A DNA stretch of 40,000 nucleotides from Eubacteriales bacterium (GCA_045534025.1 JAZSIW010000009.1:1-40000), one strand, 5' to 3'. Counted from the stretch's first letter, positions 19,134 to 38,338 are shown. Made by a program: numbers and translations. Notes: generated from the sequence alone by a model not told the origin.

Positions 19134-20711
19134 TCACTTGCCCTCCTCCCTCATTTTCAAGAGCAAGGAGCGTACTTCCTTCATAACGGCTACAACGCTG
19201 TCGTCCTTTGCTGCCGCCGCTTTTGCTATCTTTTTTTCAAGCTGTCCCACAACCATAGGCATAGACATATTCTGAGCCGCATTTTGAGCGTTTGCAACCA
19301 CGAGAGGCGTGTTGCCCCATTCGCCTTCAAACTCCTCAAAATCATCGCCAAGTGCGGAATATGCAATCTCCTTGGCCTTGTTGGGCGTGAGTCCGCCCGC
19401 CTTCTCCGCTATGGTAAGTATCTTGAACATATCGTCGGGGTTGGTTGTCTTCGGCTCCTTGAAGTACACCTCTACAAAACGGAAATTGTAACCGTTAAGC
19501 AAGCGGTTGTTGATAATCCACGCAAGGCTTTTGCGCTCCGGTTGGAATACTTGCTTCTCGGTTATCTCTTGCGCCGTCTGTGCTGTGGCACGGTTAAAGT
19601 CCGTTGTATAGCCTACATAGAGGTCGGGAAGGTTGAAAGCGGATTGGGCTCTGCGGCGGTTGTTGTCCAAATACTCTTGGAACAGTTCGTCCTTTTGCAA
19701 AATAGAGGCGAGGTCTTTTATCTCTACCTCTGCGGGCTTTTCTCCCTCGAATACCGCTGCGTTATCTGAGCTCTCTGTTTCAAGCACTATAAAAGCGTGT
19801 TGCCCTGCTTCGCCCTTGATGTCGTTCATATACTCGGTCAGCTTGGTGAACGAGTCCTCGGTGAGCGTGCCGCCTTTAAGAATTATCATCAGAGGCGTAT
19901 GCCTGCCGTTGCGGAAATAGTTGTTGTTAAGCTCCTCTGCACGTCGGCTCCCGTCTACGCCGAGTATCTGACCCGCCCATCGCACTTCTCCGTAAGGCTC
20001 GGTGCCTAACGCAAACTCCAACAGTTCGTTGGCTTGGTCTTTGAGGTCTAATTTTTCGCCGTCTGCAAGGTAATCGCCGCTATACTTATTCATAATACGG
20101 GGGTCGCCAAACTCCTTGAAATAGACGGTTTTGCTGCCTACCGTTTGGCGATATTTACGGAATTTGCGGTCGCGCTTCACTACCTTGCCCTTGTAGTTAA
20201 ACTCGGTGCTTATATAAGGCTCTAACAAGCGGGTCTTTTGTACCGACGGGATATCCTTTACGTACTCGATTTGCGCGACGTTCCCCTCAAGGTTGCGTAT
20301 GCACTCAAGGTACGCTATGCCGTAGGTTTCCCTGCCATCTATAATGTCCTTGAATATCTCCGTAGCGTCGCAATCGTAGTTAAGGAGGTCTATAATCTCC
20401 TCCGCCTGTGCGTACTCTGCCGCCATTTCGGAGGTTTCTTCTTCATCGACCTTATACCTCAAGCCGATGCCGAAGCCTGCTATGTTGTTTTTGTACGCTC
20501 TGATGCATTGAGGCAGAATGGAGGAGTTAAGCACAAACTTCTTCAAGCCTTGCAATTCAAAGTCGGGCGTTATCCATTCAGATGCCGACACAGCGGTTGC
20601 GCTGTCAAACTGCTCCGTTTTGTCTGATTTAAGCAAAGGTTGAGGGGCGGCGGCTCCTTTGATTATCTTAACCTCGTAGCCGGGCCTTTTCTTTAACGTC
20701 GCTTCCATCAC
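19134..20711 (-). CDS. Portal protein
   Basis: 525 aa. ATGA overlap with terL. Its position between terL and the gp7-like gene and its size are typical of portals. Confidence 0.8.
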   Translation of the reverse strand: MMEATLKKRPGYEVKIIKGAAAPQPLLKSDKTEQFDSATAVSASEWITPDFELQGLKKFVLNSSILPQCIRAYKNNIAGFGIGLRYKVDEEETSEMAAEYAQAEEIIDLLNYDCDATEIFKDIIDGRETYGIAYLECIRNLEGNVAQIEYVKDIPSVQKTRLLEPYISTEFNYKGKVVKRDRKFRKYRQTVGSKTVYFKEFGDPRIMNKYSGDYLADGEKLDLKDQANELLEFALGTEPYGEVRWAGQILGVDGSRRAEELNNNYFRNGRHTPLMIILKGGTLTEDSFTKLTEYMNDIKGEAGQHAFIVLETESSDNAAVFEGEKPAEVEIKDLASILQKDELFQEYLDNNRRRAQSAFNLPDLYVGYTTDFNRATAQTAQEITEKQVFQPERKSLAWIINNRLLNGYNFRFVEVYFKEPKTTNPDDMFKILTIAEKAGGLTPNKAKEIAYSALGDDFEEFEGEWGNTPLVVANAQNAAQNMSMPMVVGQLEKKIAKAAAAKDDSVVAVMKEVRSLLLKMREEGK

Positions 20712-22111
20712 TTCTTATCCCCTTTCTTTATTTCGTTTTTTATAGGGACGCATAACAAAAGAACGCAATCCGCCTCGTCGGGTGAAGGCAAATCGCGTTT
20801 CTTCATATCGTCTTTACTCTCTATTCGGATTTTGCTGTTTTCGGTAAGCCTATACTTTCTGCCCGAAAGTTGAGCTACCAAGTCATCGTCGTCCGGTAAT
20901 ATAAGCTCTACCGGTTTTGGCTTTCTTTCCTCGTCAAAAGGGGAAAGCAGGCTTTTAACCGTAGCCATCATATACGATGTGCTGTCGTGGTAATGTTTGT
21001 GCTTGATGCGCTGCCCAAATTTAATCGGCACTATGTTCATTTGTGTGAGGTTATCCGGGGCGTTTCTCTTTAGCTGTCTTAGCCTATCTACAACGCCACC
21101 GCCTACGCCGCCGTCGTCCACGCATACTGTAACGGCTCCTTTGTAGCCGGGGTAGCGCTTCAATAGGTCATAGTACAGTAACACTATATCGTCCGCCGTT
21201 TTCATTGTGTCTTGGCCGTGGCGCTTCTTATCAAGCGTTACCTTTTCGTCTACCTTGGAGCCTATTATAGTCTTATCGTCGCCAAATCTCGCAACGTCGC
21301 ACCCTATACGGATTGAATGTGGTACCGCCGCCGGTGTGTACTCTGTCATTATGGAGCGCTCAACAAGCGTTATCGGTATGAATACATCTGAGTTGCTAAG
21401 AGGAAAATCCCCCGCAACACGTACTCGGAATACGTCGCTATCCTCTCCGTACATTCGGATTATGGTGTCAATAAACTCTTGAGATACACGGCTGCTTTTC
21501 CTGCCGTCTATGTGGAATGTCTTGTATGACGCTCTGTTTTTGTTGTGGCTGTCGTAAAAGAAGCCGGAAAGCTGTGTAGGGTTTCCACACATTAAAAGCC
21601 TTGCGCCGGGCGTTGATAATGCACCAAGCACCGGCTCGAATATGTTATCTCTTACGCCGCTTGCTTCGTCGATGATGTAGAGAATATCGTCTGCGTGAAA
21701 GCCCTGTAAGGCGTCCGGCTTTGTTGCCGTTCTTGCTACCGCAAACCATTCCTCGGAATACCCCTTGAGGTATACTTTCTCACGGGTCCATACAAATTCT
21801 TTTTCAAGCGCCGGCGATTGCCTTAACCACTTGCTTACCTCCGCCCAAAGTATATCGAACAACTGATGCTGCGTCGGTGCCGTGCATGCTATTTTTGGGA
21901 ACGGCCTTGTAGACATAAACCATATAAGGGCCCACGCCTCAACAGCGCTCTTGCCTATACCGTGTCCGCTTCGTACCGATGTCATTGTGTTGTCGGCAAC
22001 ACTTTGCAGTATCTCCGCTTGCTGCGGGTCGGGCTTAATGCCTATGAGGTCTTCTACGAAATGAACGGGATTTTTAGCATAATACAGTATGGCGTCTTGA
22101 CTCAAACTCAT
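20708..22111 (-). CDS. terL: Terminase large subunit
   Basis: 467 aa. Walker A SGHGIGKS, Walker B ILYIIDEASG, and a C-terminal nuclease-like region. ATGA overlap with terS. Confidence 0.9.
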   Translation of the reverse strand: MSLSQDAILYYAKNPVHFVEDLIGIKPDPQQAEILQSVADNTMTSVRSGHGIGKSAVEAWALIWFMSTRPFPKIACTAPTQHQLFDILWAEVSKWLRQSPALEKEFVWTREKVYLKGYSEEWFAVARTATKPDALQGFHADDILYIIDEASGVRDNIFEPVLGALSTPGARLLMCGNPTQLSGFFYDSHNKNRASYKTFHIDGRKSSRVSQEFIDTIIRMYGEDSDVFRVRVAGDFPLSNSDVFIPITLVERSIMTEYTPAAVPHSIRIGCDVARFGDDKTIIGSKVDEKVTLDKKRHGQDTMKTADDIVLLYYDLLKRYPGYKGAVTVCVDDGGVGGGVVDRLRQLKRNAPDNLTQMNIVPIKFGQRIKHKHYHDSTSYMMATVKSLLSPFDEERKPKPVELILPDDDDLVAQLSGRKYRLTENSKIRIESKDDMKKRDLPSPDEADCVLLLCVPIKNEIKKGDKK

Positions 22112-22614
22112 TCGCCGTCCCCCTCCATTCTGTTTTTATATGCTGAAATAATGGTGTCAGCGAGGGATGCAGTTTGTCCGGGGCCGTTTTCGCCAAAGTC
22201 GGATATGCTCTCCTGCCTTGTTTCCTTTTCGAGCTTTGTTCCCAACGAAAGAAAGCGGGCTATATCTTTTGCCGACAAATACTTCAAACTGTCGAGGGCT
22301 TTTACCGCCTTTTTCTGCAAAAGCATCGCCGTTTGTATCTGCCTGTCTTGCATCTTTTTGATGGCGAGTTTCTTTTCTTCAAACTCTTGACGGCGCAAAT
22401 CGTTCTCGTAATCACGAACACGCTTCGGCCATTCCCACATACTGCTCCATCTGCCTATGAGTGCGTGGGATTTGTTCAACTGCTGTTCAACTTTTCGTAA
22501 AGTGCGCTCCCCGCCCATTTGGAGATACAAGTAAAAAGCTTCATAAGCCTGTGCGCTTTCGTTTGGCTGACGTTCCCAAGACAACAAATTCTTGCTCCCT
22601 TTAGCCTTTGCCAT
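22108..22614 (-). CDS. terS: Terminase small subunit
   Basis: 168 aa. N-terminal ESAQAYEAFYLYLQMGGERTLRKVEQQLNKSHALIGRWSSMWEWPKRV pattern (HTH) is common in Firmicutes phage small terminases. Located directly upstream of terL. Confidence 0.7.
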   Translation of the reverse strand: MAKAKGSKNLLSWERQPNESAQAYEAFYLYLQMGGERTLRKVEQQLNKSHALIGRWSSMWEWPKRVRDYENDLRRQEFEEKKLAIKKMQDRQIQTAMLLQKKAVKALDSLKYLSAKDIARFLSLGTKLEKETRQESISDFGENGPGQTASLADTIISAYKNRMEGDGE

Positions 22615-23905
22615 TATCCTCCTCTCCTTTTAGGGCGTATTTATAAACTATGTCGCCGTTTTCGTCTCTGCCAACGGGTCTGAGTATTCCTCCGTACCCT
22701 TTTGCCGGGCTTGTACCCTTGTTGGGGCTGTTCCAATTATCCCTAAGAAACTGCGACATTGTTGTATCATAATTTAACGCACGGTTTTTGTTGTTTCCCG
22801 TGTTGTAGCCTGCGGCTCCGACCCAGGGGAATGAAAAATATTTGTCGATGTTTTCTGAAATATCGGGCCATCGCACCTCTCCGTTTTCTCTTGCTGTTAT
22901 AATCGCTTGACCGAGGTTTCCCGTTTGGCTTACGTCCCATTCCGGTGGTACGCCGCAACAGTTACAAGCATCGTTGCATTCACGGCAAAAAGCGTCGCTA
23001 ACGTGGAAACGCATACCGAGGCTGTGGACGTATTCCCTCATATCGTGGATAATCGGTGCCTTTATGCCTCGGTTAAGCCTCTTGTAGCCATGTTGGGTGC
23101 TATTCTCCATATAGTATTTGTGTATGTCAAAACCACAAATCTTGCTCATTTCAGCGTATCGCTTCTTGAGGTTTTCGTCGGCTCTTGCTTCCATACAGAA
23201 AAACTCTGTCGTAACACTGTCGGCTCCGGCTTCGTGTGCCATTGATATAAGCTTCTTGTAATCCGAGGAAACTCCGAGGATAAACGGTCTAAGGCGTAGT
23301 GTTACGTGTATACCGATGTCTGAAAGCCTCTTTATTGCGGCTATCCTTTCTTCCGGTGAGGGCACGCCCTTTTCTATCCTTCGTGCCTTTTCTTTGTCTG
23401 CGGTTATTATGGAGATTTTAACGTGCCAATTATGGGTGTGTCTCTTGAACAGCTCCATATATCTTTCGTCGGCCGTCCACCAAGCAGCTTTTGTGCTAAA
23501 AGAAAGCGGGTAGTCTATTTTGTCGAAATACTTAAGAAGCTCCAACGTAACACCGTATCTACGCTCCCATTCGTCAAATTCGTCCGCAAGCCCTCCCCAT
23601 TGCATTATCCTGCGATTTTGGATATATGGGAAGAATTGTTGTTCCGTCTTAGTTACTCCCTCGGTATTGTTCAGCATAGCATTCTCAAATAAATTTATAA
23701 CCTTTTGAGGGTTTATGCAACGAGGTGCGCCGCCGCCTCCTATATAACCGTTTAATGTATGGCTTTTTTGGAAATAAGAAAAACAGTAAAGGCAGTTGTA
23801 AGCGCATTTGCTGTATGTGTCGAGGCTCATGGGCATCGAGCAATCGGGGATTTCCATGCTCCACCTTGGTGAGCTATAGTTTTGCTTTAATTGCTTTTCG
23901 TCCAT
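22601..23905 (-). CDS. Radical SAM enzyme, SplB/COG1533-like, 434 aa
   Basis: Start set to ATG 23905 (RBS TAGGAG overlapping the upstream stop). CX3CX2C cluster CAYNCLYC near the N-terminus and a C-terminal Cys cluster CRECNDACNCC. The 3' end overlaps the terS start by 14 nt. Confidence 0.8.
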   Translation of the reverse strand: MDEKQLKQNYSSPRWSMEIPDCSMPMSLDTYSKCAYNCLYCFSYFQKSHTLNGYIGGGGAPRCINPQKVINLFENAMLNNTEGVTKTEQQFFPYIQNRRIMQWGGLADEFDEWERRYGVTLELLKYFDKIDYPLSFSTKAAWWTADERYMELFKRHTHNWHVKISIITADKEKARRIEKGVPSPEERIAAIKRLSDIGIHVTLRLRPFILGVSSDYKKLISMAHEAGADSVTTEFFCMEARADENLKKRYAEMSKICGFDIHKYYMENSTQHGYKRLNRGIKAPIIHDMREYVHSLGMRFHVSDAFCRECNDACNCCGVPPEWDVSQTGNLGQAIITARENGEVRWPDISENIDKYFSFPWVGAAGYNTGNNKNRALNYDTTMSQFLRDNWNSPNKGTSPAKGYGGILRPVGRDENGDIVYKYALKGEEDNGKG

Positions 23906-23916
23906 GCTTTTTTCTC

Positions 23917-24501
23917 CTATTCGTCTATTCTTATAACTGTTGTTTGCGAACCTTCTTTTATCTGCCCGGTGAAGCCTTCGTCTTCGGCCCACCTCTCTGC
24001 ATAGAAGCTGTTTTCAAATACAAGGGTTACAACATAGCTGCCGCCTAAGATTTCTCCCTCGTATTCATCGTCCCACTCACCAAAGTCTGAGTCGTCTATG
24101 AGGTCCGAATTGTTGGCAAGTATAACGGCTATTTCGTCTTCCGAAAAGCCCGAAAGCGCTGCCACTTCGTAATCGAAGTCTTTTAATATCGCTTCCAACT
24201 TTTCGTAGTCCCATTGCCCCTTGATTTTGTTAAGCGCTACATTAAGCAGCTTTTCGTCTGTTTCGTCGAGGTCAACAACAGAGCAAGGGATTGTGTCGTA
24301 TCCTAAATGTTTCATAACGGCAAGGCGCTGATGGCCGCCTACTACGTTGCCCGTTCTTTTGTTCCAAACAATAGGCACCACATACCCTATTTCGGTGATG
24401 CTCCTTTCGAGCTTTTCCCACTCCGGCATCCCCGGTGCCAATTCTACACGGGGATTGTAAGGTGCTGCGTTAAGCTGCGCTATCTTAATTTCCTGTACCA
24501 T
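23917..24501 (-). CDS. ParB/Srx N-terminal domain protein (paralogue 2) with acidic linker and small C-terminal domain
   Basis: 194 aa. APYNPRV...VPIVWNKRTGNVVGGHQRLAV (ParBc-type core), then LNVALNKIKGQWDYEKLEAIL, an acidic stretch, and C-terminal YVVTLVFENSFYAERWAEDEGF. RBS GGAGGGG. Confidence 0.75.
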   Translation of the reverse strand: MVQEIKIAQLNAAPYNPRVELAPGMPEWEKLERSITEIGYVVPIVWNKRTGNVVGGHQRLAVMKHLGYDTIPCSVVDLDETDEKLLNVALNKIKGQWDYEKLEAILKDFDYEVAALSGFSEDEIAVILANNSDLIDDSDFGEWDDEYEGEILGGSYVVTLVFENSFYAERWAEDEGFTGQIKEGSQTTVIRIDE

Positions 24502-25099
24502 ACTCTGTCCCCTCCATCTTGATTGTTATGTTTCGGGCTGCGTCTTTGTATTCCGCCTCTACTCCTCTGTCTGTAAGCCACTTTTCGGCGGCTTCCTTTG
24601 TAGGAAAAGAAATAAACACGTGGAACGGCTTTTGACGCTCTACCGGCTCCGTTTCTTCGTCCGCGTCGTCGTCCGTTTCCTCGTAGTCATCCGTGTCGTA
24701 TTCTTCTTCACCGAACATACTTAAAAGTTCCTCCGCTGTAAAGCCGGTGTATTGTATGTCGTCGGCGTCTATTTCGTCAAAAAGCTCCTCCAATTTCTTG
24801 TAGTCCCATTCGCCGTCTATCTTGTTGATAGCGATATTAAGGAGCTTTTCTTGTTCTTCATCAACTTCTATAAGCACCACTTCCGCCTCCGTTTTTCCCT
24901 TATCTTTTAACACGGTGAGGCGTTGGTGCCCGCTTACGAGGTTTCCGGTGGTTTTGTTAAGCACTAAAGGCTCCACCAAATCAAATCGGTCAAGGCTGTT
25001 TTTCAAAGCCTCGTATTCGTCGTCGCCCGGTTTCAAAGCCTTTCGGGGGTTATAATCTGCCGGGCGGATATCTTCGAGTTTCATTATGGCGGTTTCCAT
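24485..25099 (-). CDS. ParB/Srx N-terminal domain protein (paralogue 1) with acidic linker and small C-terminal domain
   Basis: 204 aa. ADYNPRK...EPLVLNKTTGNLVSGHQRLTV, then LNIAINKIDGEWDYKKLEELF, the acidic run EYDTDDYEETDDDADEETE, and C-terminal FHVFISFPTKEAAEKWLTDRG. Confidence 0.75.
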   Translation of the reverse strand: METAIMKLEDIRPADYNPRKALKPGDDEYEALKNSLDRFDLVEPLVLNKTTGNLVSGHQRLTVLKDKGKTEAEVVLIEVDEEQEKLLNIAINKIDGEWDYKKLEELFDEIDADDIQYTGFTAEELLSMFGEEEYDTDDYEETDDDADEETEPVERQKPFHVFISFPTKEAAEKWLTDRGVEAEYKDAARNITIKMEGTEYGTGN

Positions 25100-25100
25100 A

Positions 25101-25862
25101 CTATTTAGCTCCTTTTCTTCGTTTTAGCTTTACGCTGTTTTCCTTTGAGGGGATAATCTCAAGTATGTCCCCGTGTTTTCTCTTGAGAAGCTTTAACATA
25201 TCGGTTTTGCGCTTCCACGCCTCTGCGCATCCTCCGTCTGCAAATCTGTCAATATCAGCGCAGGTGTCGTCTATGCTAACAAAAGCTCCGTAGCGTTTGA
25301 TTATTTGAGCACACATATCGGTATCTTGGAGGACAACAAAGTTGCGGTCAAATCGCAAATCCGTATTTATCAAGCCGTAAAAGCCCGTATCGCACAGTTT
25401 CCGTCTGTTATGGCCCGGCCGCATAAACATAGCGTTCCTTGTCATTGAAAGCCCAAAGCCAACCGTCTTTTCAAGCCTGCAAATTGCAAACCCTCTGCGG
25501 CAAAGAGTTAAAAGCTCTTCGAACTTTTGTACGTTAACGAGCTTTCGCTTCCCCGTTGCTTTATCTATCGTAAGGCGTTTTATCGCTTTTATGTCGTCTT
25601 CCAATATTACAATTTTTACGCCCTTTGAGTGGTAGTCTAAAAGCGTGTTAAAATTATCCGCAGCGCAACTCCCCCCCCGGTATAAGAAGGCGCCTACACG
25701 CTTGTTGACTCCTGCACGGGTGTACGCCTGCCGGTCCTCCTCTGTCTGCACGGAAAGAGATATCCAATCTTTCGGACATCCCATCGACTCAAGCAAATCG
25801 AGCGTTTTTTGGCGTCCGGCTCTTTTGTAGCTTGGTATGCAAAATAAAAATTCGGGCGTCAT
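25101..25862 (-). CDS. GT-A-fold-like transferase (paralogue 2)
   Basis: 253 aa. N-terminal FCIPSYKRAGRQ resembles the GT2 IPTYNR block. DxD-like IVILEDDI. C-terminal GGCAEAW is shared with the upstream paralogue. ATGA overlap with the upstream gene. Confidence 0.5.
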   Translation of the reverse strand: MTPEFLFCIPSYKRAGRQKTLDLLESMGCPKDWISLSVQTEEDRQAYTRAGVNKRVGAFLYRGGSCAADNFNTLLDYHSKGVKIVILEDDIKAIKRLTIDKATGKRKLVNVQKFEELLTLCRRGFAICRLEKTVGFGLSMTRNAMFMRPGHNRRKLCDTGFYGLINTDLRFDRNFVVLQDTDMCAQIIKRYGAFVSIDDTCADIDRFADGGCAEAWKRKTDMLKLLKRKHGDILEIIPSKENSVKLKRRKGAK

Positions 25863-26626
25863 TCTTTTTTCTTCTTTCTCAAATCTATTCTGTTGTTATC
25901 TCGCAATAGCACCCTTGCTTCGTGGGGCTTGTTTTTCTGTGGTGCTAAAATGTTTGGGTAAGCCTTGGAAAGTCTCTCTACGGTCTTTAAATTTTCGTCT
26001 GAGTGCCAAATTTCGTAGCAACCGCCTGCATTCGTCCGATGCTTTGCATTCGGGGCGAGAAAATTGTATCGCAACACTTCTCCGCCACCTTCGAGCACCC
26101 TTGCACACATTTCTATGTCTTCTTTTGTTTTGTAGCTTTCGTCGAACAACAGCTCATGCCCTTTTGTGAAGCCAATTACCGTGTTCACCGTAACCGTCGT
26201 CGATATGCTCGGCGACATAAAAAAAGCGTTATGCACGGGGTAAATCCCGAACAACGACGCTTTCCTCTTTTGTGCCATATTAAAGCACTTGTTTAGTAAT
26301 TCTGCGAACTCCTCGCGTGTATCGATGGGTACGAGTTTGTTTCCTCTAAGCTTCCCTATGCTTGAAACATCATCGTCAAACATAAGGATATTTGTGGCAC
26401 CCGAAAAATACCTCAGAGCGTTGTTCCTTGCTGCCGCTACTCCGTTTGCCGGGGTAAGGATTATGTTCGCCCTGTCTTCGTGCTTTTTGTAAGCCTCTCT
26501 GTCATTTGCGGTTTGCACAAAAATGTATATACGTTCTTTGGGTATTCCAAGCCCCGATAAATAATCAAGTGTTATCTGTTTTTCGGCTCTCCTGTATGAA
26601 GGTATTGCCATTACAAAGTTCTCCAT
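25859..26626 (-). CDS. GT-A-fold-like transferase (paralogue 1)
   Basis: 255 aa. RBS GAAGGAGGG. MAIPSYRRAEKQ, DxD-like ILMFDDDV, and C-terminal GGCYEIW. Confidence 0.5.
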   Translation of the reverse strand: MENFVMAIPSYRRAEKQITLDYLSGLGIPKERIYIFVQTANDREAYKKHEDRANIILTPANGVAAARNNALRYFSGATNILMFDDDVSSIGKLRGNKLVPIDTREEFAELLNKCFNMAQKRKASLFGIYPVHNAFFMSPSISTTVTVNTVIGFTKGHELLFDESYKTKEDIEMCARVLEGGGEVLRYNFLAPNAKHRTNAGGCYEIWHSDENLKTVERLSKAYPNILAPQKNKPHEARVLLRDNNRIDLRKKKKE

Positions 26627-27068
26627 TAGCTACCCTCCTTCTCAACTCTGTCGAGCTTAATCCGTGCGCCCTGCTATTATAATAAATTTCGATGCCGAGG
26701 TCCCTGCAGGCTTGCTTCCCGGTGAAATCTTTGTCTCTATAATCTTCCCCTACAAATCGTATGTCTATGGGGAGTGAGCGAATGGCTAACTCCAAGTCTG
26801 CCTCGCTTTCAAGTGGTACTACCTCATCTACGGCTCTGTGGCCCACAAGCTGGGCGTATCGTTCGAATACCGATTGTACGGGCTTGTTTTTGAACGGTCT
26901 GTCCGTAGTCGGGTCTGTTATTATGCCGACGTATAAATAGTCGCAGTACATTTTACATTCATCGAGCATCAACGAATGCCCTGCGTGTAACAAATCTCCT
27001 ACAACCGATGTGAAGCCGATAATTAACGGCTTTGCGCTTTTTTTGCTACTCGCTAAAGAGCTGTCCAT
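26565..27068 (-). CDS. Cytidylyltransferase-family nucleotidyltransferase (TagD/ECT/RfaE-II-like)
   Basis: 167 aa. GFTSVVGDLLHAGH carries the HxGH signature. Also YVGIITD and the C-terminal RAHGLSSTELRRRV (R..G.S[ST]T motif). Confidence 0.75.
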   Translation of the reverse strand: MDSSLASSKKSAKPLIIGFTSVVGDLLHAGHSLMLDECKMYCDYLYVGIITDPTTDRPFKNKPVQSVFERYAQLVGHRAVDEVVPLESEADLELAIRSLPIDIRFVGEDYRDKDFTGKQACRDLGIEIYYNSRAHGLSSTELRRRVANGELCNGNTFIQESRKTDNT

Positions 27069-28131
27069 TCTTATCTATCATCCCTTTTGCCATGGTTTTG
27101 ACTATCTGCTTCCCTTTTTCGTCTTTATATCTGTACAGCCTTATAATGTACATCAAGTGGAGCCCTACAACGATATCGTAAATGCCCCTGCGCTTGAGTA
27201 TGCAATCCAATGTTGCGAGGTATGCCGTGTTGTTTGCTTCACTTATGCCGAAAGCGTATTCGTATCCGCTAAGCGACATTCTAAGCTTAGCAAAATCTAA
27301 AAGGTAGCTTGAGCTTTCTCTAAAATAGCGTGGGTCTATGAAATAAAGCTGCCCATCGTCGCCTTTGATGATATTGCTTAATATCATATCGCCGTGAGAA
27401 TAGCTTGCGTGCCTGTGAAAAGCTTCTTTGTGATGTGTGATAAAACGCTTGCACAAATCTATTATCCCGTTCATTTCTTTGTCGCTGGAGTAATTGCCTT
27501 CCAAAATCTCAATATGCGGTGTTATGTCAAACGCTGCCTTCCTTCTCTTTGAAAACTCAAGGATAGTAAATAAGACTTTGGCAAAATCTTCGTCGGTAAA
27601 GCAGTCTACAAGGTTTTTCCCTTCTATGAAGTCCATATAAACTGCGTTGTATAGGCAAGAAATAACCCTCGGAAACTTGCATGCGCCGGCGTTATCTTCG
27701 ACCCATTCGCGAAAACGGGCGGTATCTTCTACGCTCCCAAGCATCTTTTTTACCGTTTTGCCGAGGCGGTATATAGGCTTGTTAGAGCCTCCTCCGTGTA
27801 ACATTCCAAAGGTACCGGAGTGGAAGTCTGCTAAGTTAACCGCTTTGTCGTCAACATACAAATCTCCGATGGGCTTGCCGAATATCAGTTCATCGCACGG
27901 CACATCGTGCTTTTTTAGCCACCTTATTATCTGCGCTCGATTGCGGGCCTCTATCAACGCTAAATCGCCGTTGCATGAAACCTGACCTCTTGCTGTGTGA
28001 ATGACTATCTCGCATCCATCCTCTTTGAGCTGCCGCATCTTCTCGACAGTTTCAAGAATGGGCGTAGCGTTCTCGTAATCACGATTTATGTGAGTGCTTA
28101 TGGTGTCGTCTAAATCAAATACTATGCGCAT
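27046..28131 (-). CDS. Fusion protein: small HAD-superfamily phosphatase (N-terminal) plus choline-kinase/APH-fold kinase (C-terminal)
   Basis: 361 aa. RBS GGAAGGAGAGG. HAD motif I VFDLDDT, motif II IHTAR, and motif III/IV GKPIGDLYVDDK. Kinase part has LHGGGSNKPIYRLGKTVKK, catalytic HGDMILSNII, and YFIDPRY. Confidence 0.7.
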   Translation of the reverse strand: MRIVFDLDDTISTHINRDYENATPILETVEKMRQLKEDGCEIVIHTARGQVSCNGDLALIEARNRAQIIRWLKKHDVPCDELIFGKPIGDLYVDDKAVNLADFHSGTFGMLHGGGSNKPIYRLGKTVKKMLGSVEDTARFREWVEDNAGACKFPRVISCLYNAVYMDFIEGKNLVDCFTDEDFAKVLFTILEFSKRRKAAFDITPHIEILEGNYSSDKEMNGIIDLCKRFITHHKEAFHRHASYSHGDMILSNIIKGDDGQLYFIDPRYFRESSSYLLDFAKLRMSLSGYEYAFGISEANNTAYLATLDCILKRRGIYDIVVGLHLMYIIRLYRYKDEKGKQIVKTMAKGMIDKNGQLFSE

Positions 28132-28252: not shown

Positions 28253-28281
28253 ATTCTACCACACTCTTTTTGCCTTGTAAA
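28253..28281 (-). promoter_or_regulatory. Sigma-A/sigma-70-type promoter: TTTACA - 17 nt - TGgTAGAAT
   Basis: Minus strand has a -35 TTTACA (28281-28276), a 17-nt spacer with an extended-10 TG (28261-28260), and a -10 TAGAAT (28258-28253). It lies in the 189-nt gap after the regulator gene. Confidence 0.6.
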
Positions 28282-28320: not shown

Positions 28321-28989
28321 CTAAAACTTTTCTATGCCGCAAATCCCGTACAAAAGGGAAGTGAGGCAGGAAACGGCGGCGTCTATGTCCTTGTATACTG
28401 TGCGCTTGTCTATATGCTCCGTGTTGGCTATGCTCTGCGCCGTGGTAGGGATTTCGTCAAGGTACATCGCCTTGAGTATGCGGTAGTGCCTTTTGTCGTC
28501 CTCTCGGTTGGAACGTTCACACATAAGAGCGTAAACATCAAGCATACGGTTAACGTGGGTCATTATTATCTTTGTGCGTACCGTGGAGCTTTTTATGGCC
28601 TCCACGCTAAAATTATCTTCGTAGCCCTTGCTTGACATCATTTCCATAATGTCGATAAAGCTTTCGTCTACTTCTTCCGCCTGTTCTATTTCAAAAATGG
28701 CGTTATTAAAGTGTTCGTTGAGGTGCCTATAGTTCTGCATAAGGAGCTTCGTATTGTGGTATCTGCGGTCATATTGACGCTCTCGGAGCTTCTTTTTCTC
28801 ACGCTCTATAGATTTAATAGCCGCTTTAGCTCCTACCTCTGCACCTACCGCCGCACCGATTTGTGTGCCAAGAGTAATGGCCGCTTTAAGCTTTTCGTCG
28901 ATGTTTTTGTTTGCTACGTCATAAGCTGCGATAACGGCTGCCTTGATTATTTCCTCGATTTCAAGCCCCGTCCTGTTGTTTGTTCCCAT
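28321..28989 (-). CDS. Putative late-gene transcriptional regulator (ArpU/RinA/sigma region-4-like C-terminus)
   Basis: 222 aa. RBS GAGGAGGTG. Central RRYHNTKLLMQNYRHLNEH and C-terminal HTH-like YRILKAMYLDEIPTTAQSIANTEHIDKRTVYKDIDAAV. It is the last gene before the late promoter. Confidence 0.45.
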   Translation of the reverse strand: MGTNNRTGLEIEEIIKAAVIAAYDVANKNIDEKLKAAITLGTQIGAAVGAEVGAKAAIKSIEREKKKLRERQYDRRYHNTKLLMQNYRHLNEHFNNAIFEIEQAEEVDESFIDIMEMMSSKGYEDNFSVEAIKSSTVRTKIIMTHVNRMLDVYALMCERSNREDDKRHYRILKAMYLDEIPTTAQSIANTEHIDKRTVYKDIDAAVSCLTSLLYGICGIEKF

Positions 28990-30495: not shown

Positions 30496-30792
30496 TCACC
30501 CCCAATCCAAAGCCTGTCCGCAGTCCGGGCAGTAAGCACAGCCCCAATTATTGATACCGTACTCAAAGTCGCCGTTACCGCAGTTCGGGCATTTGGCGTT
30601 ATCGTAGATGAGGTTTCCGTCCTCGTCGTAGCCGTCGCCCCAAAATTCGGGTGGTTGCGGTATTTGTTTTAAGATAGCCTTTCTTCCGATTTCGCAAGCC
30701 TCGTTTACAGGCTCAATACTCTCGTAGTGTTCGCGGTGCGTCGGGTCAAGGATTTCGGCGGCTCTTTCGAGCATCATTTCCTGTTTGCTCAT
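30496..30792 (-). CDS. Small zinc-ribbon protein
   Basis: 98 aa. CPNCGNG...CAYCPDCG (two CxxC pairs). Confidence 0.55.
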   Translation of the reverse strand: MSKQEMMLERAAEILDPTHREHYESIEPVNEACEIGRKAILKQIPQPPEFWGDGYDEDGNLIYDNAKCPNCGNGDFEYGINNWGCAYCPDCGQALDWG

Positions 30793-31193
30793 GCACCCAC
30801 CTCCTCAATGGCTTTTATGACCTCCGCTGTGGTCTGTCCTTTTTTTATTCCTACCATAATTGCGGGCGGTGTCGGCATTTCTGCCGCGATAGGCCGCCAA
30901 AGGTGAAGGCAATTAGGGATGTTATTTACATATTCGCTCTTTGCCGGGTGATACTGTACTACGGTTTCATTTTCTCTGAAAAACATATCTTTCAGCTTGC
31001 ACATATCGTCCCATGACGGCGTTATCTTCCTGTTGCACGGTGCTACGCTAACGTGTTCCCAACCTCCGCCGTTGCTCCATATTACCGTAGCCCAACGTTT
31101 ACCGGCTTGAAATATCACTCCGCACCCGCCGTCGGGAGCGGTCCGGGCGATAAGTAAATTCGGTATGTTTTTGAGTTCTTCGTTTGTCTTCAT
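30789..31193 (-). CDS. Conserved phage protein of unknown function
   Basis: 134 aa. GGGWEHVSVAP...PSWDDMCKLKDMFF...VVQYHPAKSEYVNN.PNCLHLWRP is a pattern I recognise from many phage early regions. Function unknown. Confidence 0.55.
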   Translation of the reverse strand: MKTNEELKNIPNLLIARTAPDGGCGVIFQAGKRWATVIWSNGGGWEHVSVAPCNRKITPSWDDMCKLKDMFFRENETVVQYHPAKSEYVNNIPNCLHLWRPIAAEMPTPPAIMVGIKKGQTTAEVIKAIEEVGA

Positions 31194-31885
31194 TTAGCTG
31201 CCTCCATTTCTGCCCGTAGGGACTCTTTGATGTAGTAGTTGAGTCCAAGCTGCCGACAAAGCGTTTCGGCTCTCCTGCCAAAGTCCGCCCAATCAATGTT
31301 GGATTTGTGATAGTTCAGTTTGCCGATTTTGACCTTATCGACAATCGGTGCTACCAAGTGTAGGTTGATGAAAAACTCTCTATCATCGGTTACGGGCTCG
31401 AATGATACCCAAGTCTTTATGCCGAGGCTGTGCGCCTGTGCGAGAGCGTCAACCCTTGCTTTCCATTGCGGGTTTCTGCCGTTGCCAATACCGTCGAGGG
31501 TTATGCCGTACCAATCCTCCGGACCGAGCAAATCAAAATCACGGCTGCCGTCGCCTTTGGTGAGGATTTGCACGTTATTACCGGTGCTTTTCAGTAGGGA
31601 GATTATCTCGCGTGTTACGGTGGTGTCGTAACCGTGAGGGTATGGGTCGCAAGTAAAACAAAGGTGTATAAGCTTCCCTTTGATGCCCTCATGCTCTATC
31701 TGCTTCCGTGTTTCTTCGACGATGTTCGGCTTTGGCTCTACAACGCTATGGAATTTTTCTCTGTCTTTATGTAAGACATTGGGCGCAAAGCAGTAATAGC
31801 ATCTATGAGGGCACCCCGTGTATATGTTTATTGCGTAGTCTCCGTATTCTTTTGCTTTGCCCTTTGGTATGTAAATAGGCTTCAT
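31190..31885 (-). CDS. Radical SAM enzyme, short SplB/COG1533-like, 231 aa
   Basis: INIYTGCPHRCYYCFAPN carries CX3CX2C in the context N.Y.GC.H.C.YC typical of COG1533 'DNA repair photolyase'-type radical SAM proteins. Confidence 0.75.
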   Translation of the reverse strand: MKPIYIPKGKAKEYGDYAINIYTGCPHRCYYCFAPNVLHKDREKFHSVVEPKPNIVEETRKQIEHEGIKGKLIHLCFTCDPYPHGYDTTVTREIISLLKSTGNNVQILTKGDGSRDFDLLGPEDWYGITLDGIGNGRNPQWKARVDALAQAHSLGIKTWVSFEPVTDDREFFINLHLVAPIVDKVKIGKLNYHKSNIDWADFGRRAETLCRQLGLNYYIKESLRAEMEAAK

Positions 31886-32314: not shown

Positions 32315-33109
32315 CTAATGTTTGTCTAATTGACTTATAAGTCCTTGCAACGGGAAATTCATCCAAAGCTTTTCTGTTCTGTGTAATCCCATTTGCGCCG
32401 TTGTATCAATTAAATCCGTGTACCACCCATCAAGCATAGAGTTATATAATTCGCTGTCGTATCCGCTAATAACGACTTTTGCGTTGCTGTTAAGCAAGGC
32501 GCCCAAAAGGTCCCTATGCTTTTCTTCGGACATTTCGCAAGCATACATATTTCTTTTCCGCAAACTTGGCAGATACGGGGGGTCACAATATATAAGCGTA
32601 TCCGAGCTGTTGTATCGCCTAATAAGCTCAATGGCATCTATTCTTTCTATTTGGGCATCTTTAAGCCGCATACAGCAACTTTGTATAATCTGCGGCAAAT
32701 CATTCCACATAGTTGCACATCGAGGACCGCCATAGGTTTGTACATTGCGCCAGCTCCTTTTACTGCTGTTGCTTGTTCCAAAAGATTGATGATACCGCAC
32801 CAATGTCCTCCGAGCCTGCTCAACCGGGTCTACAGAACGGTGGTAGCACTCTTCAAATTCTTGCCGGCTGAACGGAGTAAGGCTTATTGCTCTTGCAAGT
32901 GCATCGGGCTGTTCTCTGCACACTTGAAACAAATTCACAATGTCGCCGTCAATATCGTTTATCGTTTCTATATAGGTTGGGGTCTTTTGAAAAAACACGC
33001 CGCCCGACCCAAAGAAAGGCTCTAAATAAACCTTGTGTTCGGGGAAATGCGATATTATCCATTGTGCTATGCGCCACTTTGCGCCGGGATACTTAAGAAT
33101 TGCTTTCAT
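32315..33109 (-). CDS. dam: Dam-family (D12 class) N6-adenine DNA methyltransferase
   Basis: Start set to ATG 33109 (RBS AAGGAG). LKYPGAKWRIAQWI, motif I EPFFGSGGVFF, motif IV LIYCDPPYL. Confidence 0.85.
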   Translation of the reverse strand: MKAILKYPGAKWRIAQWIISHFPEHKVYLEPFFGSGGVFFQKTPTYIETINDIDGDIVNLFQVCREQPDALARAISLTPFSRQEFEECYHRSVDPVEQARRTLVRYHQSFGTSNSSKRSWRNVQTYGGPRCATMWNDLPQIIQSCCMRLKDAQIERIDAIELIRRYNSSDTLIYCDPPYLPSLRKRNMYACEMSEEKHRDLLGALLNSNAKVVISGYDSELYNSMLDGWYTDLIDTTAQMGLHRTEKLWMNFPLQGLISQLDKH

Positions 33110-33419
33110 TTTGCATCTCCTTATGCTGTAGTTCGCCGTAACTGCAATAATCATTTGGGTCAAGTCCGTCAGTCATAAAATAAGAACACACAATATCATC
33201 TCCCGAATAGTCGGTAATATCCAATGGGTCTTTTTCCATATTTGCCACATTAAATTTACAATCTTTACACCTTACCACTTCCACAACATCTGCGGTGGGT
33301 ATCTTTGAAAGGTTGGGAGAATACTCTTCTCCGTGGTCGCAATAAGTATTACAACCGCTGTTACTATGATGTCGGCAAGTCTCACATTTGCCTAAATATT
33401 TTGTGTCAATATAGGGCAT
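33093..33419 (-). CDS. Small Cys-rich protein (paralogue B)
   Basis: 108 aa. CETCRHH..GCNTYCDHG, VVRCKDCKF, NDYCSYGE. Confidence 0.55.
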   Translation of the reverse strand: MPYIDTKYLGKCETCRHHSNSGCNTYCDHGEEYSPNLSKIPTADVVEVVRCKDCKFNVANMEKDPLDITDYSGDDIVCSYFMTDGLDPNDYCSYGELQHKEMQNESNS

Positions 33420-36194: not shown

Positions 36195-38015
36195 TTAATT
36201 TAAAAGCAACATAGCGTTGTTCGTGACGGGAGCGAGGTAATAATTCGCCTTAGCCATAATGTCGTTGTACGCTTGTTCTCCTTGAAAACCGTCTATGACG
36301 TTTTTTTCCTCCTCGGTCATATCGGTGTAACGCTTCCTGCCGTAGCACGGAGGCAGCCACGCTTTATTTTGGGCAGCGTAGATATTAAATCTCTCTATCA
36401 ATTCGGGGCAGGTAAATACAAGGTGTACCGTACCCTTTTTGTAAAACGTTGCTTTGAAATACTTGAGGGGTACGTTTTTGGTTTCTCCATGTTTAAAGTG
36501 CCATTCTAACGTCTGCTCAAGGCTTACGTCTAAGGTCATATTGCCGTCGAGGAAATTGAGTATGCGCTCTATATCTTCTAAAACTTTTCGAGCTTCATAG
36601 GTGCGAGGTTTACCATCCCAACTATCGAACACTCCATAGCAAGGGATGATAACCTTCTTGCCTATTTTGTGGGCTTTGTTTGTAGCCCATCCGTCGTAAT
36701 AATGCCTGTTCTTTTGTGTTTCCGGGTACCACGAATGTTCCTCCGTCAAGCGGTCAAACATCGCTATTATCTCCTCCTCAATTCCGGTCTTGATTTGGGA
36801 GTTCATTTCGGCAAGCAAGGTGTATATGTTGTACTCCGTGTAATCATAAGCAGCTAACTTGCTTACTTTTACGTAGTATTCCTGTTGGAGCTTGCTTGTA
36901 AGCTTGCTTACAAATTTAGGGTTTTTGACTAACGCTATCCAATACTTTAGCCTTACGGCTTTCAAATATTCGTTTACAGAAACGGTGTTGTAGCAACGGT
37001 CGTATGTGTCTTTGAGTTTCAATATAGGCTCCGTGTCTACATATTCTCTGCTTATGGTGCCGTCTGCGTTCTTAACCTCTTTTGTTTCAAAAGAACGTAT
37101 CATATACGGCATCATAGCTCTGTATTGTCTTATAAGCTCTATGCCGGCTTTGACTTCTACTCGGAATAGATTTACGGAAGATTTGATAACGTCGGTTACG
37201 TCTAAGTCTCTGCTTTCAAAATCAAAATCCTCTACCGCCTCAGCTTCCTTCATTCGGTTGTATATTTCGCTTTCTTCCTGTACTGCCGGTATGTCAACCT
37301 TAATTATGGCTACCTCGACGTTTGTTTTTCGCTCTGCCTCCATAAATGCGCCTTCTTCAAATTCGATGGAAGCGCCGTATGTGTTAAGCAAACGTATAAG
37401 CTCTTTTCGGGTTTCTGTGTAAGGGTTGCGGATTGTTTCGGCGTTGACTAAGAACACGATCTTCCCGCCATCCCTTTGTATTTCCAAAGCTTTCAAAAGG
37501 TGTCTATCCGCAACGCTAAAGGGAGGGTTTCCGATGATAAGGTCGTATTGCTTAAACGGCTCAAAGGTAAGAAAATCATCGTGTACGACGTGTATGCCGC
37601 CGTGTATAAAGGTTTTCAGCTCCTCCTCAAGTAGTGCGTGTTCGGCCTTATCCTCTGCAGAGGCCCATACGTATTTATGGGCGTCGGAGCTGTAGTTGCG
37701 TCGGTTTTCAAGTTCTCCTTGCCTTCTGTGAATTTCGCTTTTTCTTTCTTCCGAAAAGTTGTATTTAAGTATCTGCCTTAAATTCGGGTCTATCTCTACG
37801 CAATCAACGTCGTATCTATCGTCGCAGTATCTTGAATATTCATTGGCCGCTTTTTTTGCAAACCCTCGTATGATATCACCTTTCCCGGCGGAAGGCTCAA
37901 GCACGGTGTTAATCTTTCTCAAGTCTACTTCTTCTAACATTTTTTGCACCAAACGTGGAGGCGTAGGGTAAAACTCGCTGCTTTCAGCGTTCTCTACAAG
38001 CTGTACTGCGTTCAT
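36195..38015 (-). CDS. Gamma-class N6-adenine DNA methyltransferase with a large C-terminal extension (DUF4942-like)
   Basis: Start set to ATG 38015 (ATGA overlap, RBS GGAGGAGG). EFYPTPPRLV, motif I LEPSAGKGDI, motif IV LIIGNPPF. About 400 further residues of unassigned function follow. Confidence 0.8.
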   Translation of the reverse strand: MNAVQLVENAESSEFYPTPPRLVQKMLEEVDLRKINTVLEPSAGKGDIIRGFAKKAANEYSRYCDDRYDVDCVEIDPNLRQILKYNFSEERKSEIHRRQGELENRRNYSSDAHKYVWASAEDKAEHALLEEELKTFIHGGIHVVHDDFLTFEPFKQYDLIIGNPPFSVADRHLLKALEIQRDGGKIVFLVNAETIRNPYTETRKELIRLLNTYGASIEFEEGAFMEAERKTNVEVAIIKVDIPAVQEESEIYNRMKEAEAVEDFDFESRDLDVTDVIKSSVNLFRVEVKAGIELIRQYRAMMPYMIRSFETKEVKNADGTISREYVDTEPILKLKDTYDRCYNTVSVNEYLKAVRLKYWIALVKNPKFVSKLTSKLQQEYYVKVSKLAAYDYTEYNIYTLLAEMNSQIKTGIEEEIIAMFDRLTEEHSWYPETQKNRHYYDGWATNKAHKIGKKVIIPCYGVFDSWDGKPRTYEARKVLEDIERILNFLDGNMTLDVSLEQTLEWHFKHGETKNVPLKYFKATFYKKGTVHLVFTCPELIERFNIYAAQNKAWLPPCYGRKRYTDMTEEEKNVIDGFQGEQAYNDIMAKANYYLAPVTNNAMLLLN

Positions 38016-38338
38016 ATCGTCGCCTCCTCCGTGCATATCTTTATACCGATAATAACGTGTTCCGGCGTATGTGTCGTGCCTCTGTCGTACAGCGTAGCCG
38101 TGTCGCCGTCAAACTCCCAAAACGGAGTTTTGCTCCAATATAACCAAGAGCCCTTGCCGCAGTTGGCGGCGGACACTTTGCTTTGAGGCTGCCCCGGAAT
38201 AATACTGTAAAAGCCCTGCGTATTTGCTATGTTTACCTTTCGCCTCTGCCCTATGTATTCGGGCCTACAATGGGCCGTTACTTCAAATTCTGCGCCGGGG
38301 GTTAGCGCCTTCTTTAACTGAGATAAATTTTTAATCAT
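38012..38338 (-). CDS. Hypothetical protein
   Basis: Start set to ATG 38338 (RBS GAGAGG). 108 aa. The longer ORF would overlap the loader gene. Confidence 0.5.
   Translation of the reverse strand: MIKNLSQLKKALTPGAEFEVTAHCRPEYIGQRRKVNIANTQGFYSIIPGQPQSKVSAANCGKGSWLYWSKTPFWEFDGDTATLYDRGTTHTPEHVIIGIKICTEEATI

Follow-up and report, generated by a model that had tools for sequence, protein, structure and literature searches.

The window analyzed here, a stretch of 40,000 nucleotides from Eubacteriales bacterium (GCA_045534025.1, JAZSIW010000009.1:1-40000), is a strand-coherent phage or prophage segment in which every gene, like each feature located below, lies on the minus strand (-). Genes for a tail sheath, baseplate J, portal, Mu-F and XkdF protease identify it as of the myovirus type, and the genes of its replication/recombination module include those for DnaC, SSB, RecU, two DNA methyltransferases and a small radical S-adenosylmethionine (SAM) protein. 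The subject of this work is a pair of adjacent genes, ParB-A (24485..25099, an open reading frame (ORF) of 204 amino acids) and ParB-B (23917..24501, 194 amino acids), that an earlier note on this DNA had described as a tandem pair of ParB/Srx-domain proteins without a methylase. In the order of transcription, the genes of the region encode a phrog_1558 protein and, after a gap of 189 nucleotides, a HAD/kinase-like fusion, a nucleotidyltransferase, TAGT255 and TAGT253 (TAGT stands for TET-associated glycosyltransferase), ParB-A, ParB-B, a spore-photoproduct-lyase-like radical SAM protein that we call rSAM-S, and the small and large terminase subunits, terS and terL. The genes of the cassette are tightly packed, with overlaps or with gaps of at most 11 nucleotides, and because the genes overlap an operon structure is indicated.

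ParB-A, characterized by Pfam, BLASTP, PHROG, AlphaFold2 (AF2) and Foldseek analyses, and ParB-B are full-length paralogues, and the elements that they share are far above chance. BLASTP aligns 191 residues of the two (E 4e-35), of which 35% are identical and 55% positive; this alignment covers the N-terminal domain, the block LN(I/V)A(I/L)NKI.G(E/Q)WDY(K/E)KLE and the C-terminal module, and all four elements that had been recognized earlier in both proteins fall inside it. An AGGAG-type ribosome binding site precedes each gene, and the start of ParB-B overlaps the end of ParB-A by 17 nucleotides. ParB-A consists of a nucleotide-binding domain (NBD; amino acids ~1-95, nucleotides 24815-25099) with N17-P18-R19 and G57-H58-Q59-R60, a helical segment (amino acids 96-129, 24713-24814) with the motifs LNIAINKIDGEWDYKKLE and TGF, an acidic disordered linker (amino acids 130-158, 24626-24712) and a C-terminal beta-alpha-beta domain (amino acids 159-204, 24488-24625). 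In ParB-B the corresponding parts are an NBD (amino acids 1-93, 24223-24501) with the motifs YNPR and GGHQRL, a helical segment (amino acids 94-126, 24124-24222), an acidic linker (amino acids 127-153, 24043-24123) and a C-terminal domain (amino acids 154-194, 23920-24042). The linkers are as strongly acidic as had been claimed, with aspartate and glutamate accounting for 52% of residues 128-158 in ParB-A and 37% of residues 127-153 in ParB-B, and the net charges of the whole proteins are -31 and -23. The C-terminal module of ~45 amino acids, called alpha/beta-looking in the earlier note, proved to be a beta-alpha-beta unit. It is strongly conserved across 20 orthologues, and by hhalign the modules of A and B are homologues of each other (probability 98%, E 2.8e-13).

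The fold was modeled for ParB-A, with 21 orthologues as input to AF2. The model has an N-domain with a predicted local distance difference test (pLDDT) score of 82-89, helices at residues 81-129, a stretch predicted to be disordered (residues 131-160, pLDDT <50) and the C-terminal beta-alpha-beta unit (pLDDT 56-74). The first ~130 residues matched pNOB8 ParB-N, B. subtilis ParB-CDP, Noc, M. xanthus ParB-CTPgS and KorB with a Foldseek probability of 1.0; PadC was also among the matches, and SerK, SbnI and sulfiredoxin were weaker ones. Together with the PHROG profiles, which match both proteins at E ~1e-38 to 1e-40 (for ParB-A, phrog_498 at 7e-40 and phrog_620 at 1e-38), these results bear out the ParB/Srx fold. 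The Pfam family ParB_N (PF02195) scored 29.9 bits with ParB-B (cut-off 26.3) and 20.5 bits, under the cut-off, with ParB-A. Across 21 ParB-A orthologues N17-P18-R19 and G57-H58-Q59-R60 do not vary, and in clade B the conservation of YNPR and GGHQRL is 80% or more; a nucleotide site is predicted from these motifs. Box II reads GHQR in both paralogues and in the related ParB-methyltransferases, with histidine in place of the catalytic glutamate of the canonical GERR.

A likeness to the N-terminal part of ParB-methyltransferase fusions, with no methylase following, had been pointed out before and was confirmed. Over the N-terminal ~130-150 residues the pair is most closely related to ParB-N6/N4-methyltransferase fusions (45-56% identity by tblastn), and phrog_498, the profile of the N-terminal part of ParB-methyltransferases, matches the pair at E 5e-40 and 7e-40 over positions 33-185 of 633. 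In neither ParB did Pfam or PHROG match a methyltransferase domain, and both proteins end after the 45-amino-acid module. In the phylogeny A and B form separate orthologous clades, and clade A nests among the ParB-methyltransferase fusions. The pair shares with the fusions the YNPR, GGHQRL, LNxALNKIxGxWD and TGF motifs, the slot upstream of terS and the frequent tandem arrangement, and differs from them in that an acidic linker and a 45-amino-acid beta-alpha-beta domain replace the methyltransferase. A survey of ParB CTPases found ParB-methyltransferase fusions enriched in prophages and the fold to bind CTP, ATP or GTP, and mentions neither radical SAM partners nor tandem pairs (Kaljevic et al., PNAS 2025, PMC12704722). 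Tandem ParB-N6/N4 methyltransferase fusions of 410-440 amino acids were also seen in ten IMG/VR loci (L037, L042, L044, L051, L064, L066, L070, L075, L076 and L088). In L137 (1-1296) the A position is held by a genuine ParB-N6/N4 methyltransferase fusion (431 amino acids, 5'-truncated at the contig end), which is followed by ParB-B, a P-loop kinase and rSAM-S. Two further loci, L038 (8001-11490) and L074, have three consecutive ParB-domain genes upstream of terS and then a 237-amino-acid ORF; the trio consists of two stand-alone proteins (200 and 212 amino acids) and a 517-amino-acid fusion (phrog_5475) with a C-terminal Rossmann SAM-binding-like motif, VDFGAGK. Paired ParB N-domains seem to be a general phage theme and not specific to the cassette.

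No helix-turn-helix (HTH) family of Pfam or NCBIfam matched either ParB, and in the ParB-A model the helices run into the disordered linker. The window ORFs scanned, which were those of at least 90 amino acids and not inside a longer ORF between 18 and 40 kb and, from the structural module, the largest ones, included no ParA-type ATPase; no centromere-like repeats were seen, and no nuclease motif was recognizable in ParB-A or ParB-B. A partition or nuclease role of the pair, as in the PHROG labels 'ParB-like partition protein' and 'nuclease', was rejected because ParA, HTH and nuclease motif were not found. The role in DNA modification, and not partition, that the earlier note had suggested is supported. 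Canonical ParB, Noc and KorB share the fold with the pair, which lacks the HTH, ParA, parS-type function and GERR glutamate; from KorB comes the idea of a clamp that keeps a partner on DNA. An analogy with DndB/DpdB, the proteins of phosphorothioation and 7-deazaguanine systems, which had been drawn before, holds only at the level of the superfamily (a ParB/Srx fold, the GxxR P-motif and a tie to DNA-modifying enzymes). Membership in that family was rejected, since no NCBIfam DndB/DpdB family matched the pair at E<=0.01 and the motif is S/G-GHQR, not DGQHR.

Relatives of ParB-A in a large protein collection number 1,180, of which the best 120 are full-length (205-225 amino acids, 55-69% identity) and belong to Clostridia, Ruminococcus and Eubacterium bins. 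The contigs of these best relatives have a constant order, ParB-A, ParB-B, a radical SAM protein of ~435 amino acids, terS and terL, and a variable upstream part that holds either a 316-amino-acid SPASM radical SAM protein with a TAGT or a 168-amino-acid P-loop protein alone. When IMG/VR was queried with the single ParB-A sequence only ParB-methyltransferase fusions were retrieved, and an alignment query was needed to find the full-length relatives. Seen from the ParB side of IMG/VR, the full-length A/B relatives alone precede rSAM-S and terS, and the remaining relatives of the N-domain are all ParB-N6/N4 methyltransferase fusions of 410-470 amino acids, often in tandem pairs.

From the rSAM-S side, a scan of IMG/VR gave 52 loci and a scan of one genome per species gave 59. 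Families were assigned by jackhmmer, and 64 non-redundant loci, each extending 3.5 kb or more upstream of rSAM-S, make up the locus set used below. ParB genes are found upstream of rSAM-S in 62 of the 64, as two copies in 38 loci and as one copy in 24. A TAGT or a P-loop protein is present in 59 of the 64 loci, and both together in none (Fisher p = 5e-13, without correction for shared ancestry). The number of TAGTs in the 38 two-ParB loci is zero in 15, one in 18 and two in 5, which rules out one ParB per TAGT; the earlier suggestion of two specificities matching two transferases is not supported. These results indicated that rSAM-S, and not the glycosyltransferases, is the constant partner of the ParB genes. 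The link to the neighbors proposed in the earlier note was correct as to the modification cassette, and the invariant partner is the downstream rSAM-S, which that note had left unconnected, instead of the transferases. ParB-A always comes before ParB-B, and in nearly all loci their genes either overlap or adjoin each other. Mirror-tree correlations were 0.94 for A and B, 0.85 for A and rSAM-S and 0.88 for B and rSAM-S, values that mainly reflect co-inheritance and give no evidence of physical contact. Mean pairwise identity was highest for rSAM-S (0.75, the most conserved of the set), followed by B (0.57) and A (0.50).

Single-ParB cassettes occur in other lineages, alongside an amino-acid:DNA transferase (AADT) and a kinase. 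Most loci from Bacteroidales, Prevotella and Victivallales bins, and some from Firmicutes, have the order ParB, AADT, P-loop kinase, GNAT, rSAM-S, (terS), terL, in which the AADT belongs to PF18724 (59-65 bits) and a GATase-like gene is occasionally present. The P-loop protein of L194 matches Ploopntkinase3 with 36.9 bits (cut-off 27), in L102 a P-loop protein is fused to the N-terminus of rSAM-S, and in L203 the domain fused to the C-terminus of rSAM-S matches PF18748, '5-hmdU DNA kinase' (49 bits, cut-off 27; 5-hmdU is 5-hydroxymethyldeoxyuridine). The P-loop proteins of the cassettes are homologous to the kinase of Rhodococcus phage Tonitrus (E down to 3e-22). In the set of the 150 best rSAM-S representatives from the library, the fusions were of the types TAGT::rSAM-S, rSAM-S::TAGT and P-loop::rSAM-S::TAGT. 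The last type includes the 894-amino-acid P0261, a fusion of P-loop kinase, rSAM-S and TAGT, and the exclusion of kinase and TAGT is therefore not absolute. Two apparent ParB::rSAM-S fusions, P0289 and P0282, lack the CX3CX2C region and look like deletion or gene-call artefacts. The recurrent unassigned ORFs of the related cassettes were a terS-like protein, small regulators and a SAM synthetase, with no candidate dioxygenase among them. Ten non-redundant single-ParB cassettes, mostly of the Bacteroidales type (L170, L171, L181-L184, L186-L188 and L193), have the SAM synthetase gene (E 2.5e-37 to MetK of the PDB) as the neighbor directly upstream of ParB; the gene was also seen downstream of rSAM-S in L204 and upstream in L001. 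Its linkage to the cassettes suggests a heavy demand for SAM.

The partner gene, rSAM-S (22601..23905, 434 amino acids), most likely starts at the ATG at 23905, which has an AGGAG ribosome binding site, lies 11 nucleotides past the ParB-B stop and gives a length that fits the 430-440 amino acids of its homologues; the mechanical ORF call (22601-23992, starting at GTG 23992, 463 amino acids) would overlap ParB-B by 76 nucleotides. The protein has the invariant cysteines C34-x3-C38-x2-C41 plus C22, C237, C316 and C317, and its radical SAM core matches PF04055 with 29.8 bits (cut-off 29.5). The nearest NCBIfam families, PA0069 (71 bits, cut-off 360) and Rv2578c (48 bits, cut-off 430), are both of the SplB/COG1533 clade. 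A PDB search with the rSAM-S sequence, either single or as a profile, found no match. The AF2 model (pLDDT 79, predicted template modeling score 0.83) retrieved spore photoproduct lyase structures as its top four Foldseek matches in the PDB, over 315-344 columns with E 1.5e-6 to 1e-5 and a target TM score of 0.51-0.57. Spore photoproduct lyase carries out thymine C5-methyl chemistry in DNA and does so without need for a ParB. rSAM-S resembles this enzyme (SplB; PDB 4FHC) in its fold and in the CX3CX2C core, and differs from it by an identity of only ~15%, by a C-terminal extension of ~100 residues with an invariant NCCGVP, and by a context of phage hypermodification, not repair. On these sequence comparisons, rSAM-S is a distinct family inside the clade related to spore photoproduct lyase. 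Its relatives comprise 1,682 proteins at E<=1e-5 in a collection clustered at 90%, or 210 clusters at 50% identity and E<=1e-30. In 50,697 deposited phage genomes, tblastn at E<=1e-3 found none except two weak matches in uncultured human faecal phages. Inteins (LAGLIDADG/Hint) interrupt many rSAM-S genes at the motif of the Fe-S cluster or close to it, and some of the genes have two; the carriers include L202 (5708-8179), P0246, P0259, P0268, P0270, P0279, P0293, P0331, P0339, P0340 and P0352.

Among the other genes of the cassette, TAGT255 (25859..26626, 255 amino acids) matches PF20691 with 52.8 bits (cut-off 27.5), and TAGT253 (25101..25862, 253 amino acids), a TAGT-like GT-A glycosyltransferase, has a weaker Pfam TAGT match than TAGT255; its stop lies 1 nucleotide ahead of the ParB-A ATG. 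The cytidylyl/adenylyl-transferase-like nucleotidyltransferase (26565..27068, 167 amino acids) presumably supplies the TAGTs with their activated donor, and the fusion of an N-terminal HAD-phosphatase with a C-terminal kinase-like part (27046..28131, 361 amino acids) is presumed to act in the synthesis of the donor substrate. The phrog_1558 protein (28321..28989, 222 amino acids, assigned by PHROG) is conserved directly upstream of the cassette in most of the related loci that have two ParBs and, judged by its position only, is possibly a late-gene regulator. The 189-nucleotide gap that follows it holds the best promoter-like site (28253..28281), TTTACA-17-TAGAAT with an extended TG, which is weak evidence because the number of sites in the region was not above chance. 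Directly downstream of rSAM-S, and overlapping it by 14 nucleotides, is terS (22108..22614), followed by terL (20708..22111); most related two-ParB loci have the cassette fixed at this place. No nucleotide-level relatives of the region from 20.7 to 29 kb were found by megablast among 50,697 phage records.

The replication module holds a second, small radical SAM gene (31190-31885, 231 amino acids), which is similar to PA0069/'mobile pair B' and is followed by a DUF7694 gene (30789-31193). Homologues are present in related prophages (L001, L155 and L028). In L028 a stand-alone ParB of 204 amino acids lies ~600 bp upstream of the homologue of the small radical SAM gene, a second possible ParB-radical SAM association. 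A 613-amino-acid methyltransferase with a DUF4942 domain (36195-38036) and a D12-class Dam methyltransferase (32315-33163) are also encoded, and therefore the phage DNA is probably adenine-methylated as well.

A precedent for a ParB that acts on a DNA-modifying enzyme is available. A subclass of phage thymine dioxygenases (5mYOX, of the TET/JBP family) requires a ParB-like activator, which consists of an NBD, a short helix-helix, an unstructured linker of ~50 amino acids and, at the C-terminus, a domain for dimerization, with no DNA-binding domain (O'Toole et al., PNAS 2026, PMC13229309). Both end domains are needed, the ParB is required on double-stranded DNA only, cognate pairs are specific, and activation needs no terminase, either in E. 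coli or in vitro; the clusters carry P-loop kinases, AADTs, GATases and glycosyltransferases, with a terminase in 19% of 5mYOX/ParB contigs, and radical SAM enzymes, anaerobes and paired ParBs go unmentioned (PMC13229309). The aerobic phage Tonitrus is an example, in which genes 1-7 include a ParB, a TET/JBP enzyme, an AADT and a kinase, with the terminase a few genes on. Judged by the AF2 model of ParB-A and the alignment, the pair has the same stand-alone architecture without a DNA-binding domain. It also lies beside what we propose to be a DNA-base-priming enzyme and beside thymidine-hypermodification genes, often near the terminase, as the 5mYOX ParBs do with their neighboring 5-hmdU kinase, AADT, glycosyltransferases, GNAT, GATase, and HAD and APH-type kinases. 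The differences are that the partner is a radical SAM protein related to spore photoproduct lyase and not an Fe(II)/2-oxoglutarate dioxygenase, that the ParB is duplicated, that the named host bins are almost all from gut or rumen, and that the A/B N-domains are much nearer to the ParB-methyltransferase fusions than to the Tonitrus ParB. Because the defining dioxygenase partner is missing, we propose that the pair works like the 5mYOX-ParB family without being assigned to it.

5-Hydroxymethyl-pyrimidine in DNA is the known or predicted substrate of TAGT, 5-HMUDK and AADT (Lee et al. 2018/2021; Burke et al. 2021, PMC8256090). The thymidine hypermodification pathway (5-HMUDK with aGPT-Pplase/AADT) has kinase and AADT families in common with the related cassettes, and in it, too, a radical SAM protein of this type, M6 gp53, acts on DNA. 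In that pathway a dUMP hydroxymethylase supplies 5-hmdU before replication, there is no ParB, and gp53 acts late; here rSAM-S is invariant, and no thymidylate-synthase-like hydroxymethylase was detected among the window ORFs scanned.

ParB-A and ParB-B are best described as duplicated, methylase-less ParBs of the hypermodification type that belong to a DNA-hypermodification cassette expressed late and acting after replication, with the ParB(s) and rSAM-S as its core. In the mechanism that we propose, ParB-A and ParB-B would dimerize through both their N-domains and their C-terminal domains, and the dimer would activate rSAM-S or hold it on duplex phage DNA, as a single ParB does with the thymine dioxygenases. 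By SAM-derived radical chemistry, rSAM-S would then convert a base, most likely at the C5-methyl of thymine, to a hydroxymethyl-type handle without O2. The two TAGTs could put one or two sugar-type groups on this handle, with a donor made by the HAD-kinase fusion and the nucleotidyltransferase, and the modified DNA would be packaged by the adjoining downstream terminase. The proposal as a whole, a ParB-A/B heterodimer that activates or clamps an rSAM-S priming double-stranded DNA for glycosylation by the TAGTs, is one that we consider moderately probable. A heterodimer, which the earlier note had raised, is plausible because A and B form separate clades with a fixed order, the genes overlap, and cassettes elsewhere make do with a single ParB; the overlap of the two genes also suggests translational coupling. 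The role of priming enzyme is assigned to rSAM-S because rSAM-S and ParB are invariant across three downstream chemistries. More tentatively, rSAM-S with its heterodimeric ParB may be an O2-independent substitute for TET/JBP that turns thymine in double-stranded DNA into 5-hydroxymethyluracil or an activated C5-methylene species.

A number of observations weigh against this proposal. The hydroxymethyl-type handle on thymine is the weakest link of the mechanism: to our knowledge, hydroxylation of thymine by a radical SAM enzyme is without precedent, and a complete auxiliary-cluster motif is not obvious in rSAM-S. M6 gp53, the one radical SAM protein of this type that has been characterized in DNA hypermodification, is a late tailoring isomerase and does not prime (PMC8989533). 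The absence of an alternative enzyme is bounded as well, since the scan of window ORFs that turned up no TET/JBP dioxygenase (PF12851) did not reach the ~17 kb of the source contig beyond the window, and the search of the related loci, which gave no match, used the Tonitrus TET as its one seed sequence and not the Pfam model. The link between ParB and rSAM-S is one of gene neighborhood only; ParB is absent upstream of rSAM-S in 2 of the 64 loci (L199 and L202), and no genuine ParB::rSAM-S fusion was found among the library representatives. With Tonitrus gp1, hhalign aligns ParB-A only weakly (E 1.4e-4, probability 52%, over 117 columns of the NBD and helical part), and it detected no similarity of the A/B C-terminal domain to the ParBs of single-ParB cassettes or of Tonitrus. 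For these two reasons, the recruitment of ParB may have been convergent. Lastly, in the published system mutants of the nucleotide site of ParB176 stay active, which leaves the role of the conserved nucleotide-site residues unclear (PMC13229309).

The explanation that survives best beside the proposed activation of rSAM-S is one of targeting coupled to packaging, in which the ParB pair would direct or time the modification machinery or the terminase at specific sites (pac) through contacts with terS and terL. The cassette is directly upstream of terS and terL in the window and in most related loci, the share of 5mYOX/ParB contigs with terminases quoted above points the same way (PMC13229309), and Aravind and co-workers, in the account given by Burke et al. 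(PMC8256090), suggest that ParB steers the modification apparatus during packaging. The adjacency to terS is weak evidence because the same slot is usual for ParB-methyltransferase fusions and other late accessory genes, and it is the whole cassette, not the ParBs alone, that occupies it. Recognition or cleavage of a pac site, the alternative named in the earlier note, found no specific support. The proteins have net charges of -31 and -23 and no recognizable HTH or nuclease motifs, and the published ParB activates its enzyme without terminase (PMC13229309). We consider this explanation unlikely on its own; it is compatible with the activator role.

Somewhat less likely still, rSAM-S could be a late tailoring enzyme like M6 gp53, or one that acts on the appended sugar or amino acid, in which case the ParBs would serve another component and the handle would come from elsewhere. 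Beyond the precedent of gp53 itself, to which rSAM-S has no detectable similarity, the constancy of the core bears on this point: rSAM-S and ParB are retained in cassettes with glycosyltransferase only, with kinase only, and with kinase, AADT and GNAT, and a tailoring enzyme specific for one adduct is unlikely because it would not be invariant across these chemistries. No other source of the handle was found in the scanned window ORFs or in the cassettes, and the near absence of tblastn matches to rSAM-S in deposited phages also argues against a tailoring function.

It is improbable that one or both ParBs are themselves enzymes that, by nucleotide-dependent phosphotransfer chemistry as in Srx or SerK, phosphorylate or nucleotidylate a base intermediate or a donor substrate. 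The ParB/Srx fold does contain sulfiredoxin and the serine kinases SerK and SbnI, all of them among the weaker structural matches here, NCBIfam gave a weak SerK match to the pair, and the NPR and GxxR residues of the nucleotide site are invariant. Nevertheless, the best structural matches are to the clamp-type ParB, Noc and KorB, the cassettes that need phosphorylation have a P-loop 5-hmdU kinase of their own, the catalytic glutamate of GERR is a histidine in the pair, and the ParB176 site mutants are functional (PMC13229309). Finally, the ideas that the ParBs are paired one-to-one with the TAGTs, as the two of each in the window would have it, or are partition, nuclease or anti-restriction DNA-mimic proteins unrelated to their neighbors, to which their acidity and the PHROG labels lend some color, are very improbable given the 0, 1 or 2 TAGTs of two-ParB loci, the single-ParB cassettes with AADT and kinase, the lack of ParA, HTH and visible centromere-like repeats, and the near-universal linkage to rSAM-S.

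The named host bins of the related loci are almost all from gut or rumen (Clostridia, Oscillospiraceae, Lachnospiraceae, Selenomonas, Prevotella, Bacteroidales and Victivallales), and the hosts include a cultured isolate, Selenomonas ruminantium S137, whose prophage (L161) has the gene order ParB-A, ParB-B, P-loop kinase, rSAM-S, terS, terL; cultured Oscillospiraceae or Lachnospiraceae are carriers as well. No description of a cassette of ParB, radical SAM protein and TAGT or kinase was found in the searchable literature, and it is apparently an unreported version of a recently described ParB-dependent modification system. Aerobic and anaerobic enzymes for the same step are known in pairs such as FGE/anSME and HemF/HemN. 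If the proposed activation of rSAM-S by the ParB pair is correct, phages of gut and rumen anaerobes would have an O2-free route to hydroxymethyl-pyrimidine hypermodification that needs neither TET/JBP nor a hydroxymethylase at the nucleotide level, and glycosyl, phospho and amino-acid hypermodification would be opened to phages of strict anaerobes. Among radical SAM enzymes, rSAM-S would be the first to prime, and not to tailor, a DNA base modification, and also the first one regulated by a ParB. ParB-fold proteins were shown to be obligate activators of DNA-base dioxygenases only in 2026; a second enzyme class would make ParB a general adaptor through which base-flipping enzymes can act on duplex DNA, whatever the chemistry, and the duplicated A/B pair offers a natural handle on how a ParB dimer engages its partner. 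The large rSAM-S family, near-absent from deposited phage genomes, may hide DNA chemistry in the gut virome, and its cassette may affect the evasion of restriction and CRISPR as well as phage sequencing and may yield O2-free enzymes for DNA labeling.

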